Source: a virus. Taken from it: 64,000 nucleotides of DNA. A model generated the notes under the pieces. That model was not told the DNA's origin and did no database searches. It saw only the letters and a program-made list of their open reading frames with translations. The stretch lies in IMG/VR virus record IMGVR_UViG_3300020185_000013, positions 66,480 to 130,479 of that record, one strand, 5' to 3'. The translations under genes and the position numbers were made by a program. The number at the start of each line of letters is the position of its first letter. Positions within the stretch are counted from its first letter, which is position 1. Positions 7,872-64,000 of this stretch are shown one piece after another.

Positions 7872-8402
7872 ATGAAACACATAAAATTATTCGAACAGTT
7901 TATCAACGAATCTCATTTTACTGCAGGCGACAGCGTAGAATGTATTGATAGCGGAATGATCGGATCAGTTATTGGATCTACTGGAAATGGTGATGAAGAA
8001 ATCTATATTGTCTCTATTAATGGAGAAACTAAAGAGTATTCACCAGAAGAGCTAACACTGGTAGAGTCAGTACTTAATGAAATGGACTCAGAAGCTGCTT
8101 TACTTTTAGCAGATGAGGTTAGTGGTGAAGTATACACTGCAAAACTAAAAGGCAAATCAGCTACTATTAAAGCAACGACGACAACTAAAACTTGGGATGA
8201 TGGTGTTCCAGTTCTAAAAGATTTAGCTAGAGGCAGTGCAAAGTCAGTCAAGTTTGAACTATATCAAAGACCTTTTAAAGTGATTCATGACGTAGCTCAC
8301 GATTGGTTCTACTTTACAGATGGTGGAAAATGGTATGGTCTGCATAGTAATGATGGCTATTATGAACCAAGTGATTTACCATTTGAAATGACACTTGATT
8401 AA
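7872..8402 (+). CDS. MKHIKLFEQFINE-motif protein with SH3/KOW-like first module
   Basis: F..GD.V......G.V pattern followed by an ESVLNE linker. Confidence 0.6.
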   Translation: MKHIKLFEQFINESHFTAGDSVECIDSGMIGSVIGSTGNGDEEIYIVSINGETKEYSPEELTLVESVLNEMDSEAALLLADEVSGEVYTAKLKGKSATIKATTTTKTWDDGVPVLKDLARGSAKSVKFELYQRPFKVIHDVAHDWFYFTDGGKWYGLHSNDGYYEPSDLPFEMTLD

Positions 8403-10018: not shown

Positions 10019-10081
10019 CCAGGACCCAAACTTGTTGGATAGCAGAATATATAAACAACTAGCTGGTAAAATCCAACAATC

Positions 10082-10111
10082 AAAAGGTCTAATTCACTTT
10101 AGACCTTTTTT
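10082..10111 (+). terminator. Intrinsic terminator-like hairpin before nrdB
   Basis: AAAAGGTCTAA-ttcact-TTAGACCTTTT followed by TT. Confidence 0.65.
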
Positions 10112-10139
10112 AGTCTAAAAAATAAGGTAATATTAGAAT

Positions 10140-60950: not shown

Positions 60951-62906
60951 ATGGCTTTTTGGACAAGACCATTTGCATACAATACAACAGGTAGTACAAT
61001 ACCTGGAACTAAACAATTCGGAGATTTCGCGATTGGATATCCGACAGTCGGTTATGAAAATACAGGACTTAAATGGTATAAAGCTCCGGACGAAAGTTTA
61101 GGATATATTATTGCCAGACCTGATCCAACTGGAAGATTAGCAGCTGACGATACAATTGCATATCTAGGATTTTGGAGATCTGAAGGAAGAACAGAAGCAG
61201 CATTTATTGAATTGGTTGTTAGAGCAACTGGTCAAAGTTTTACAACTGGAGACAATGCACACACCTGGTTAATTGACAACGGGTACTGGTCTTCTTGGAG
61301 AACATTTGCAAATAGACCTTTATTTAGCGATCAAACAATAGACGGTGATACAAAAGGATTTACTAGAGTAACTGATGTTTCTGATTTAAAGAAAAAAGCA
61401 GCGCCGACTCTTAATCCAGATGGTAGCTACACCTCAGGTTTAGTACCATATACTAATGATAATATTGATTTCAACAATCTTACAGTCGACGATCTACAGT
61501 GTATTACTTCAGTTGGAGTTGATTATCCTAGCGACTCTGTAGGTATTTCAACAACTGCCGGAGTTCCATATGGTCCTGTTAGATACTATGGAACGCTTGA
61601 AGTAGGTAATAAACTTTTTCAGGCAACCGGAGCAGTCGATACTCCACTAGCAAATAAAAGCATTATTACAATTTGGCAGCCAAGAGATTATGTAAGGGGC
61701 GGATATACTAGAAATTGGATTCACTCTACTAATTCAAGTGCAACTGCTGGAGAAACAGTTTATGAATACCATATTGTAACTGATGGCGATGGAGTAATTA
61801 CCAAATTAGTTCAATTCCAAGTAATTAATGAATCTGATGCTAATTGTCCAACTGCATCGACTAGCGGAACTAGCGGAACCTCAGGAACTAGCGGAACCTC
61901 AGGAACTAGTGGAACCTCAGGAACCTCAGCAGCTATTTGTTCAGATCCAAACCTCATCGTTCAAGTTAATGATGGACCTATTGGACAACCTGTAGAACCA
62001 CTTGTAACATATTATGGTTCACGTGCCGCAATGATTTATAATAATGTAACTCCTAGTACTTATCAAGCAGGCACCACGGATTATACTGTTAACTTTACAA
62101 TTAATAGTTACAACTTCCCGAACAGAGGAGATGCTGTGAATTGCATTACCTCAGCAACTGGTGAAACAACACTCGGAGTTTGGAATCTTAAGAAGGGTAA
62201 AAGTAATCCAAATAATAACGTGATTGGCGTGGATGATCAGGTTACAGCAGGTCAAATGATGTACCCTGCTTATTTAACAAAATCAGATCAGGCGTACTTT
62301 ACACCAATGTATGGTGAAAATAATCCATTCCGTCCATTTAACCTATATTTTACAAATACTGATATCAATACTGGTGGTACCTATGCTAGAACTGAGCTTA
62401 GAATTAACTCAGTAGACGCCGATGGTAACGACAGAGAAACTCAATTAGACCAACTAGTTGGAAATTCAGGTATTCTAACATTTAGACAGAATCCAATTTG
62501 GAAAACTAACACGAGTGCAAATGATGTTGACGCATGTTGGTACACTGTTGAAAATTATGCAAGCTATAGATTTGACGCTGACGCATTCTATAAAGTACTA
62601 CAGTCTGACGGTTCATATACATACTACTATAGCCCTGCAGCACCGGCAGGTAATCCAAACCAATTTAATCAAATTCTTACTTCAGAATCTAATATGGGTG
62701 GTTCAGGATCTTGGTATGGACAATCGTACAATGGTTCATTACAGCGCGCAGTAACACCTGATGGTGGTGTAACAACATACGATGGTGTTAGACCTAATAT
62801 TAATGTTGGGTCAATTCAATGTAACGGCTTTACATTTAACGTAGGAACTTATCAATATGACTTTGATTTTAACTTCCCAATCTCAATTAACGTTGAATTA
62901 GATTAA
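60951..62906 (+). CDS. Putative fibre/adhesin-like virion protein
   Basis: GATATATA at 60922; T/G/N-rich beta content; (TSG)n linker. Confidence 0.5.
   Translation: MAFWTRPFAYNTTGSTIPGTKQFGDFAIGYPTVGYENTGLKWYKAPDESLGYIIARPDPTGRLAADDTIAYLGFWRSEGRTEAAFIELVVRATGQSFTTGDNAHTWLIDNGYWSSWRTFANRPLFSDQTIDGDTKGFTRVTDVSDLKKKAAPTLNPDGSYTSGLVPYTNDNIDFNNLTVDDLQCITSVGVDYPSDSVGISTTAGVPYGPVRYYGTLEVGNKLFQATGAVDTPLANKSIITIWQPRDYVRGGYTRNWIHSTNSSATAGETVYEYHIVTDGDGVITKLVQFQVINESDANCPTASTSGTSGTSGTSGTSGTSGTSGTSAAICSDPNLIVQVNDGPIGQPVEPLVTYYGSRAAMIYNNVTPSTYQAGTTDYTVNFTINSYNFPNRGDAVNCITSATGETTLGVWNLKKGKSNPNNNVIGVDDQVTAGQMMYPAYLTKSDQAYFTPMYGENNPFRPFNLYFTNTDINTGGTYARTELRINSVDADGNDRETQLDQLVGNSGILTFRQNPIWKTNTSANDVDACWYTVENYASYRFDADAFYKVLQSDGSYTYYYSPAAPAGNPNQFNQILTSESNMGGSGSWYGQSYNGSLQRAVTPDGGVTTYDGVRPNINVGSIQCNGFTFNVGTYQYDFDFNFPISINVELD
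61860..61929 (+). repeat. 9-nt coding repeat (Thr-Ser-Gly), about 8 copies
   Basis: ACTAGCGGA/ACCTCAGGA units. Confidence 0.9.
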
Positions 62907-62915
62907 AATCAATTT

Positions 62916-62943
62916 GAAACCTTTTAAGATTTAAGAATATATA
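62916..62943 (+). promoter_or_regulatory. Overlapping class II (GAAAC-N17-TATAT) and class III (GAATATATA) motifs upstream of the leader ORF
   Basis: GAAAC at 62916, TATAT at 62938, GAATATATA at 62935. Confidence 0.6.
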
Positions 62944-62964
62944 CTACCTAACAAATATTAAACA

Positions 62965-63051
62965 ATGCAACACAATCTAACATATAACTTTAGTTATTCT
63001 AAGCAGATTAAGGGCTGGAGCCCTAATCTTGTTGGATTCCGTGCTGTTTGA
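62965..63051 (+). CDS. 28-aa putative attenuator leader peptide MQHNLTYNFSYSKQIKGWSPNLVGFRAV
   Basis: ATG in phage-typical AAACA-ATG context; TGG-AGC at 63016-63021; followed by a terminator and tRNA-Trp/tRNA-Ser. Confidence 0.6.
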   Translation: MQHNLTYNFSYSKQIKGWSPNLVGFRAV

Positions 63052-63075
63052 TATTAGACTTAACTTTTTGACGAC

Positions 63076-63110
63076 AATGGGTTCCAATTTTATTTGGAAC
63101 CCATTTTTTT
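63076..63110 (+). terminator. Intrinsic terminator (putative attenuator hairpin)
   Basis: AATGGGTTCCAA-TTTTAT-TTGGAACCCATT plus T run (7 T, 63104-63110). Confidence 0.85.
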
Positions 63111-63135
63111 ATGTCAAGTTTTTTGTTTATATTTG
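63104..63135 (+). promoter_or_regulatory. Class I motif upstream of tRNA-Trp, sharing the terminator T run
   Basis: TATGTC-N12-TATATTTG. Confidence 0.75.
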
Positions 63136-63154
63136 TTGAACGTTCTTTACATAT

Positions 63155-63228
63155 GCGTCTATAGTTCAATGGTAGAATAGCGGTCTCCAAAACCGTTGAT
63201 CAGGGTTCTAATCCTTGTAGGCGTGCCA
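63155..63228 (+). tRNA. tRNA-Trp(CCA)
   Basis: GCGTCTA/TAGGCGT, GCGGT-CTCCAAA-ACCGT, T-loop TTCTAAT, encoded CCA. Confidence 0.92.
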
Positions 63229-63234
63229 TTTTTA

Positions 63235-63318
63235 GGAAGGGTGGCAGAGCGGTAATGCAGCAGCCTGCTAAGCTGTGGTCGGTTTTTCGATCCCTGGGTT
63301 CGAGTCCCAGTCCTTCCG
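63235..63318 (+). tRNA. tRNA-Ser(GCT)
   Basis: GGAAGGG/TCCTTCC, GCAGC-CTGCTAA-GCTGT, long variable arm, G discriminator. Confidence 0.92.
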
Positions 63319-63348
63319 CAAAAAAACTTTAAAAAAAGTTCATCAGGA

Positions 63349-63380
63349 TTTTTTTATGTCAAAGTTTTTGTTTATATTAG
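63349..63380 (+). promoter_or_regulatory. Class I motif
   Basis: TATGTC-N12-TATATTAG. Confidence 0.8.
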
Positions 63381-63448
63381 CTAAGTAATCATCCAATAGA
63401 GATAGACAGATTTAATAGAGACAGCAAACCTTAATTAAATTAATAACT

Positions 63449-63646
63449 ATGGAAAAGATGATGACAAAACAAGAAAAAGAAGCAATTGTAAAAGAGTTAC
63501 TCGGCGATATGGTCGATACTTGCGAGAATTGCGAAGAGAAATTAGGTGTTTGGACTACAAACCCATTTCTTGAAGATGTTTGTAACGAAGTAGAACACCA
63601 GTTCCTTTGTAACGAATGCCATCACGAATTGATGATGGACATCTAG
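63449..63646 (+). CDS. Small CxxC...CxxC zinc-binding hypothetical
   Basis: CENC...CNEC. Confidence 0.55.
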   Translation: MEKMMTKQEKEAIVKELLGDMVDTCENCEEKLGVWTTNPFLEDVCNEVEHQFLCNECHHELMMDI

Positions 63647-63669
63647 GTTCTTTGACATGATGGTTTTAA

Positions 63670-63743
63670 AGTCTTATAGCTCAGTTGGTTAGAGCACTAC
63701 ACTGATAATGTAGGGGTCCGCAGTTCGAGTCTGCGTAAGACTA
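63670..63743 (+). tRNA. tRNA-Ile(GAT)
   Basis: AGTCTTA/TAAGACT, CTACA-CTGATAA-TGTAG, TTCGAGT. Confidence 0.95.
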
Positions 63744-63745
63744 CA

Positions 63746-63910
63746 AAGAGGAGAAGAAAGGCGACGGAATGCTTTGAAGTATCTTGATGGGATGTTCAAC
63801 CTGATAGAGAACAGAATGCACCGCACTGCTCACACTAACGCTACTGCTAGTTTGAAGATTGCACCTATGGTGTTGACACTAGAAGAACCTTGGCGGTGAG
63901 GGAACCTCTT
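63746..63910 (+). ncRNA. Candidate structured ncRNA of about 165 nt between tRNA-Ile and tRNA-Tyr
   Basis: Closing stem AAGAGG/CCTCTT, internal helices, visibly higher GC than other spacers. Confidence 0.45.
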
Positions 63911-63915
63911 AATAA

Positions 63916-63996
63916 TGTGAAGTTGAGCAATTGGTTGGCTCGACGGATTGTAAATCCGTTCCGAAAGGCTTGGGGGTTCGAGTCCCTCCTTCACAA
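63916..63996 (+). tRNA. tRNA-Tyr(GTA)
   Basis: TGTGAAG/CTTCACA, ACGGA-TTGTAAA-TCCGT, variable arm, GGGGG-TTCGAGT-CCCTC. Confidence 0.9.
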
Positions 63997-64000
63997 CAAA

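Follow-up and report, generated by a model that had tools for sequence, protein, structure and literature searches.

A candidate leader-peptide attenuator ahead of tRNA genes in a family of marine phages

Amino-acid operons of Escherichia coli are controlled by leader-peptide attenuators such as trpL, hisL, pheL and leuL. The pheM leader of pheST attenuates an aminoacyl-tRNA synthetase operon, and the mgtL/mgtP-type leaders are comparable. The T-box riboswitch switches between terminator and antiterminator according to tRNA charging and has a UGG-containing element; it needs no translation, its leader is about 200-300 nt long with a Stem I, and it controls synthetase and amino-acid genes. Here, we describe a unit in front of the genes for tRNA-Trp(cca) and tRNA-Ser(gct) in a stretch of 64,000 nucleotides (the window), which is the final 64 kb of one 130,479-bp phage contig (IMG/VR record IMGVR_UViG_3300020185_000013, positions 66,480 to 130,479). 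The unit comprises a late-type promoter, a 28-codon leader frame, an antiterminator segment and an intrinsic terminator (Table 1). Judged from the sequences of the window and its relatives, it would be a trp-like, ribosome-coupled attenuator of the leader-peptide type that gates late transcription into the tRNA genes, a reading to which we give a probability of roughly 55%. The original prediction for this DNA had proposed trp/his-type attenuation with leader codons that mirror the downstream tRNAs. All the features it listed were found and the structural core recurs in five groups of phages, but the codon-to-tRNA mirror was not supported.

Like trpL, hisL, pheL and leuL, the phage unit has a short frame in the leader, an intrinsic terminator before the regulated genes, a segment that can pair with the 5' arm of the terminator, a further upstream strand predicted to sequester this segment, and a rare amino-acid codon just upstream of the antiterminator segment. 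Unlike them, it has a phage late-type promoter and phage tRNA genes as its output instead of biosynthetic enzymes. It contains one Trp codon and not a tandem or run, this codon lies in a nested hairpin at the 1:2 tip and not in segment 1, the placement of the stop codon is not uniform, and the unit matches no Rfam leader family. As with pheM and the mgtL/mgtP-type leaders (see PMC3641672), genes outside amino-acid biosynthesis would be gated by a short frame whose translation reflects the state of the translation apparatus or of tRNA charging. Their targets are cellular and protein-coding, whereas here the products are tRNAs and the element is viral. In contrast to the T-box, the leader has only about 110 nt and a conserved open frame. 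When the region 62800-64000 was scanned with the Rfam covariance models (cmscan, E up to 10), tRNAs and chance-level matches were returned and neither a leader family nor a T-box.

An accessory tRNA array that is induced by impaired translation has been described in Anabaena PCC 7120 (the trn operon; passages of PMC8421152) and is controlled by the transcriptional repressor TrcR (passages of PMC10272220). The terms 'leader peptide', 'attenuation' and 'terminator' are absent from the main text of PMC10272220. Both systems tie accessory tRNA genes to impaired translation, but the trn operon is cellular and repressor-controlled, whereas the present unit is a phage element. A literature search on phage tRNA and attenuation, with supplementary tables outside its scope, gave no account of an attenuator before phage tRNA genes. 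Leader-peptide attenuation has been inferred in flavobacteria, as stated in the part of PMC9723704 consulted; this is the likely host group and the report supports our reading.

The leader unit was found in 11 distinct sequences from five groups of related marine phages. Group A contains the window, L001, L002, L128 and L186, group B the L087 type, L090 and L023, and groups C, D and E are represented by L030, L074 and L080, respectively. The order of the unit is a late-type promoter, an ATG 21-22 nt past ATATATA, a frame of 24-35 codons, a terminator and tRNA genes. Relatives were collected with the upstream tail-fibre gene as an anchor, with a 65-residue protein as an anchor (80 metagenome and 5 viral loci) and with two pattern scans. 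The fibre-gene anchor gave three viral loci. In the contigs L001 and L002 the leader is 92-94% identical to that of the window, and L003 has a different downstream region with no tRNA. The scan for the promoter plus ATGCAA returned 108 stretches, with L128 and L186 as new members and short or unrelated frames in the others. In the 10 stretches of a tRNA-Ser pattern scan, the leader was present only in L004 and L005, which are the contigs of L001 and L002, and a hairpin-tip pattern scan returned these two contigs only. A group-A pattern scan (5 stretches) gave L205, and a scan for TGAAAC...ATATATA...AACAATG (4 stretches) gave L209 with a 2-codon frame; both were rejected as chance matches. When the region 62700-63460 was compared with the phage collection by blastn, the matches were tRNA pieces only (11 records).

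Among the loci L014-L098, distinct strong terminators at most 60 nt upstream of a tRNA follow the leader frame in 5 of 5 cases; a sixth terminator match was a tRNA arm and was discarded. In L014, L016, L017, L041, L083 and L086 the unit is absent, and a coding gene or a promoter of the TGAAAC...ATATATA type stands directly before the tRNA. The terminator between the frame and the tRNA genes is present in all 11 leader sequences. In groups B, C and E only 7-9 nt, and in group D 21 nt, separate the terminator stem from the first tRNA. No promoter lies in this gap, and the tRNAs of these groups would therefore be made only by read-through.

The 28-codon frame of the window was present as predicted, and the proposed check for a conserved frame in relatives gave an open frame of 24-35 codons in all five groups. 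For comparison, a random off-frame ATG in the genome stays open for at least 24 codons with P = 0.185. The distances from the ATG to the TGG are 52, 40, 43, 43, 49 and 40 nt, and their differences are all multiples of 3. Despite indels, the in-frame TGG and the open frame were kept in 5/5 groups. Exactly one in-frame TGG was present in each of the eight sequences counted, and no codon occurred in a run. The amino-acid sequence is not conserved: four codon changes, all non-synonymous, separate the window from L002 and three, again all non-synonymous, separate L087 from L090, and the window and L128 have 13 of 28 residues in common (46% identity) at 76% nucleotide identity. This pattern fits a leader whose translation matters and not its product. 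An arrest peptide of the TnaC type, which has its conserved Trp at a set distance from the last codon (residues W12, D16 and P24), was rejected: the spacing from Trp to the end ranges from 9 to 21 residues among the members, and neither an Asp nor a Pro is conserved. Since all 147 called genes are on the plus strand, the minus-strand frames 62977-63087 and 63023-63190 were not considered further.

The terminator was found as a 12-bp hairpin with a T run after the stem. The predicted pairing of the antiterminator segment with ATGGGTTCCAA (63077-63087) in the terminator 5' arm was also reproduced, with 10 of 11 positions, two G-U pairs, one T-T mismatch and an energy of -11.3 kcal/mol. The strongest partner of the terminator arm in the window is CTGGAGCCCT at 63015-63024 (-15.1 kcal/mol), a duplex that was equalled by 2 of 2000 dinucleotide shuffles. 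L128 and L186 carry TGGAACCCGTG at the same codon positions as the window segment. It pairs at 11/11 positions (one G-U) with CATGGGTTCCA and has -19.2 kcal/mol, compared with -16.2 for the terminator hairpin. Duplex energies of -13.5, -16.4 and -15.6 kcal/mol were calculated for L001, L087 and L080, respectively.

The check for covarying antiterminator/terminator pairs gave group-specific complementarity in three of the five groups, each with a different terminator. In group A, which includes the window, the helix is TTGGATTCC/TGGAACCC against the terminator GGGTTCCA. Group B has its own, different terminator (AGGCCTCAT...) and a frame that carries the matching ATGAGGCCT, and in group E the frame has CGGGCTC against GAGCCCG in the terminator. 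Upstream duplexes as good as the observed ones were obtained in 11/2000 shuffles for L001, 1/2000 for L087, 11/2000 for L023 and 7/2000 for L080. Each cognate terminator arm was ranked against 18-22 non-cognate arms, drawn from this genome and the other groups; it came first in 7 of 11 sequences and second or third for L090 and L023. Among the 17 sites in the genome with a hairpin plus a T run, the leader terminator has the strongest upstream duplex (-15.1 kcal/mol). The next strongest were -13.4 at a weak hairpin inside a gene and -11.7, and the ordinary strong terminators have just -3 to -11.7 kcal/mol. Close relatives show two substitutions in the segment, neither of which disrupts pairing: a G-U pair becomes G-C through T to C in L001 and L002, and a G-C pair becomes G-U through C to T in L090. 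Taken together, the antiterminator is weak on the window alone, and the sequences of the relatives make a convincing case for it.

The TGG-AGC of the leader lies at the tip of the hairpin P1, as had been noted. Of the 10 pairs of P1, four have changed on both sides within the group A alignment and still pair, and 94% of the cells are paired. A hairpin holding the in-frame TGG was predicted in every group. The loops are TGGA, TAT, CTAAG, ATTTA and GTAT, and TGGA is invariant within group A. A T-box-like reading of the UGGA loop was rejected, as the loop is not conserved beyond group A. When the terminator was omitted, the leader of every member was predicted to fold into one long imperfect hairpin with P1 at its tip. 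In this hairpin the region around the start codon is paired to the last part of the frame, and the 3' strand contains the antiterminator segment. In the window, the predicted helices join 62954-62964 to 63045-63055, 62967-62969 to 63042-63044 and 62974-62982 to 63030-63038. The strand 62954-62982 is a candidate anti-antiterminator that would sequester the antiterminator segment. Its 62974-62982 helix is confined to the subgroup of the window, and L128 and L186 use another upstream partner. The fold of the terminator-less leader has z = -4.83 in the window (0 of 200 shuffles as good), -3.74 in L128, -2.91 in L087 and -2.31 in L080.

The terminator was always present in the minimum-energy fold of the full-length leader. 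We then followed the proposal to fold the RNA with and without a ribosome footprint. The nascent RNA, before the 3' arm is made, formed the antiterminator in 7 of 10 sequences. It did not form in the window, in L001 and in the unmasked fold of L090; in the window and L001 the segment is retained in the long hairpin. With a 28-nt footprint and the stop codon in the A site, a terminating ribosome would mask the segment in the window and, in part, in group B. The TGG is 15-18 nt upstream of the antiterminator segment in groups A, B and C, a distance that places the segment at about the 3' edge of a ribosome decoding the TGG.

The promoter motifs were found where they had been described, except that the stated start at 62916 is off by 1-2 nt. 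ATATATA[ACG] has 34 copies in the genome. Intergenic DNA makes up 6.6% of the genome and holds 26 of these copies, and the motif stands 11-50 nt ahead of most nearby called gene starts, including that of the tail sheath gene. By analogy with T4, whose late promoter motif is TATAAATA, we read it as the late promoter of this phage. The ATG of the leader frame is 28 nt from the start of the motif, the typical distance for genes of this phage. A TGAAAC 14-16 nt upstream of ATATATA is present at only three promoters genome-wide, of which the leader promoter is one; the other two are at genome positions 61682 and 61832, outside the window, in one 296-nt intergenic region. TGAAAC (14-18 nt upstream of ATATATA) heads the leader frame in 9 of 11 sequences and is lacking in L001 and L002; a script run on 10 sequences gave eight positives, and L128 was read by eye.

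The class I element consists of a T run, ATGTCAA and TTTTGTTTATATT(A/T)G and is mostly fused to a terminator hairpin in many intergenic regions. Its TATATTTG matches the flavobacterial sigma-A -7 box, given as TAnnTTTG in the part of PMC9723704 consulted, and the element is probably a host-type, early promoter. The caveat that it lies after the terminator was correct for the window and group A, to which a downstream class I promoter is limited. In L001 and L002, it leads straight into tRNA-Ser(gct).

From the anatomy and the folds, we derived the following steps. The TGAAAC...ATATATA promoter would start a transcript with the 28-codon frame within its first ~150 nt. If the leader is not translated, it would fold into the long hairpin with the start codon and the antiterminator segment buried, the terminator would form and transcription would stop. 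A ribosome that loads early and lingers near the TGG at the hairpin tip would keep the long hairpin open and leave the antiterminator segment free for the terminator 5' arm, and the RNA polymerase would read into the tRNA genes. A fast ribosome that reaches the stop codon would cover the segment, leading to termination. The sequences support an attenuator architecture, and ribosome coupling would most likely be its mechanism. Such a switch would most likely respond to slow translation in general, perhaps at the lone Trp codon, and not take a census of the encoded tRNAs. In the window, the switch would govern late read-through only, because the class I promoter also drives the tRNAs.

Several points weigh against this attenuator. 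In the window, chance could account for the 10/11 match (it was reached by 995 of 20000 mononucleotide shuffles of the upstream 108 nt, ~5%), the duplex is weak compared with the terminator, and the antiterminator forms in no masked or nascent fold. The class I promoter after the terminator bypasses the attenuator here, and throughout group A such a promoter makes read-through dispensable. No significant complementarity was obtained for group C (74/2000 shuffles as good for L030) or group D (1450/2000 for L074); the cognate terminator arm ranks 11th for both, and the leader folds have z scores of only -1.38 and -1.42, respectively. The strand predicted to sequester the antiterminator is placed differently in the window and in L128, and it shows no column-wise covariation. 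In L128, L186, L030 and L080, i.e. 4 of 10 sequences, the footprint at the stop codon misses the segment. The leader has one Trp codon and not the tandem regulatory codons of the classical attenuators, and the five groups have a common ancestry and are thus not fully independent. We also list here that metatranscriptome contigs from four RNA runs, which reach the fibre gene to 62913 and the tRNAs (the latter mostly those of other organisms), stop short of the leader (62938-63071 uncovered) and give no evidence either way.

A narrower version of the ribosome-coupled attenuator, which we consider less likely than not, makes the in-frame UGG a dedicated sensor. A shortage of charged tRNA-Trp late in infection, caused by host shut-off, tRNA decay or a tRNA-targeting defence, would lead to a pause at the hairpin tip, expose the antiterminator segment 15-18 nt downstream and turn on the tRNA genes.

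It is rather unlikely that the switch is real and is read not by the ribosome but by a protein or RNA that binds P1 or the long hairpin, or that the terminator is constitutively leaky. A leaky terminator would set the short leader RNA and the tRNA precursor at a fixed ratio, and the former may have a function in trans; terminated attenuator RNAs with functions in trans are known (passages of PMC6614838). P1 is conserved as a structure and not as a peptide, and its invariant TGGA loop in group A would suit a non-ribosomal factor, as would the four sequences in which the position of the stop codon is inconsistent with masking of the antiterminator. The loop sequences, however, differ between the groups, which argues against a shared binding factor. 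The open frame with its in-frame TGG, kept in every group despite indels, and the promoter-to-ATG spacing and start context, which are typical of real genes, point to a leader that is translated.

Improbable in our view is a leader that senses exactly the encoded tRNAs (TGG for tRNA-Trp and AGC for tRNA-Ser(GCT)), with loss or cleavage of the host tRNAs inducing their replacements. The original prediction had placed Trp-Ser codons upstream of the matching tRNAs, and TGG AGC and both tRNAs are indeed present. The window, L128 and L186 have TGG-AGY in the leader and, downstream, tRNA-Trp and tRNA-Ser(gct) in the matching order. When one representative per group was counted, 16 codons were read by the first two tRNAs versus 4.9 expected from the genome codon usage (Poisson 5e-5), and 13 versus 3.9 when Trp was excluded. 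The leaders are rich in TGG, TGY and AGY, and the most frequent first tRNAs are tRNA-Trp, tRNA-Cys and tRNA-Ser(gct). Across the relatives, however, the mirror was not supported. L001 and L002 retain TGG AGC though tRNA-Trp is missing downstream, contrary to the idea that the phage makes the missing tRNAs that match its leader codons. When the 170-kb contig of the L087 type (~70% complete), whose leader keeps the TGG, was searched by blastn with the tRNA-Trp of the window, no match was obtained. The codon after TGG is AGY, TAT, ATA or TTT irrespective of the next tRNA, and the order of the tRNAs is not followed in groups B-E. In L074, which has no tRNA-Ser(gct) nearby, AGY is as frequent as in the window. 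When the leaders were permuted over the tRNA pairs, 20 of 120 permutations reached the observed cognate count. The codons did not track the anticodons in this check, and the cognate enrichment is therefore a trait of the whole family that is not tracked group by group. Shared descent can explain both the richness of the family in TGG, TGY and AGY and the position of tRNA-Trp, tRNA-Cys and tRNA-Ser(gct).

Least probable of all is an ordinary small late gene with an ordinary terminator, its complementarity incidental and its tRNAs made from other promoters or by leakage: the chance-level match in the window, the class I promoter that serves the tRNAs, the terminator-plus-class-I cassettes throughout the genome and the normal late promoter ahead of the frame would allow it, but the cognate complementarity in three groups with unrelated terminator sequences, the poor conservation of the peptide between the window and L128, the direct succession of terminator and tRNA in groups B, C and E, where no promoter intervenes, and the weaker upstream duplexes of the ordinary strong terminators all argue against it.

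Why and when phages use their own tRNA genes is an old question. Proposed roles, in the parts of the literature consulted, are codon compensation, the replacement of decaying host tRNAs and the escape from tRNA-cleaving defences. If the ribosome-coupled attenuator is correct, the tRNA supply of a phage would be under ribosome feedback, the question would be testable with a short reporter construct, and classical attenuation, as in amino-acid and synthetase operons, would be extended to tRNA genes and to viruses. If the UGG is in addition a sensor, this would be a feedback loop in which the virus gauges the decoding capacity of the cell and tops it up. The family offers natural variants with strong or weak antiterminators, with or without a bypass promoter and with or without tRNA-Trp.

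Table 1. Positions of the leader unit and of the adjoining tRNA genes in the window
Feature	Position	Strand	Score or basis
Late-type promoter, special subclass (TGAAAC 62915-62920, 16 nt, ATATATA 62937-62943)	62915-62944	+	
Long leader hairpin, 5' strand (covers the start codon)	62954-62982	+	Minimum-energy and centroid folds
28-codon leader frame MQHNLTYNFSYSKQIKGWSPNLVGFRAV (ATG 62965, stop TGA 63049-63051)	62965-63051	+	
Hairpin P1 (TGG 63016-63018 and AGC 63019-63021 at the tip)	63005-63029	+	Folds, covariation
Putative antiterminator segment TTGGATTCCGT, complement of the terminator 5' arm	63032-63042	+	Pairing energy, relatives
Intrinsic terminator (12-bp stem 63076-63105, 6-nt loop, T run)	63076-63111	+	-17.8 kcal/mol
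Class I promoter-like element (T run, ATGTCAA, TTTTTTGTT, TATATTTG)	63104-63135	+	
Motif GTTCTTTACATA just 5' of tRNA-Trp	63142-63153	+	Similar motifs before tRNAs at 63647 and in relatives
tRNA-Trp(cca)	63155-63228	+	62 bits
tRNA-Ser(gct)	63235-63319	+	54.9 bits

The genome has a G+C content of ~35% and five tRNA genes, of which four sit at the genome end. The nearest relatives of its tail sheath are the sheaths of Tenacibaculum, Flavobacterium and Prevotella phages (33-38% identity), and Shine-Dalgarno motifs are absent from its gene starts. Because of these two features, the host is probably a marine member of the Bacteroidota.

The content of tRNA genes varies among near-identical relatives: L001 and L002 are without tRNA-Trp, and L001 is also without tRNA-Ile. 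At 63449-63646, the window encodes the 65-residue protein that was used as an anchor. It is a zinc-ribbon-like protein with a CxxC...CxxC pattern, and some JGI copies of it are named 'YlaI'. Its relatives, with 57-100% identity, lie inside very mosaic tRNA clusters. In L014, the protein is 100% identical, yet the locus has no leader frame and no upstream tRNA-Trp or tRNA-Ser. Between tRNA-Ile and tRNA-Tyr (63746-63910 in the window), the first ~45 nt are kept in L001, to the end of its contig, despite the absent tRNA-Ile.

In L001 the terminator loop (8151-8156, ATAAAA) is the inverted complement of TTTTAT, the loop of L002 and of the window (63088-63093), and by its sequence this is a small inversion inside the hairpin. 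Class I elements (T run, ATGTCAA, TTTTGTTTATATTAG) occur, for example, at the window positions 1148, 33842, 52238, 52601, 63111 and 63356, and the stem fused to the element varies with compensating changes. A motif GTTCTTT(G)ACAT(G)AT.GG ends a few to ~20 nt ahead of several tRNA genes. In the window it occurs at 63142-63153 and 63647-63663, and it is also present in L023, L030 and L128. A promoter, a processing signal and a cassette boundary are all possible readings of it. At 10019-10139 of the window, the inverted repeat TTGTTGGAT/ATCCAACAA flanks a late-type motif, and a terminator lies between this element and the next gene; the region may be another regulated leader.

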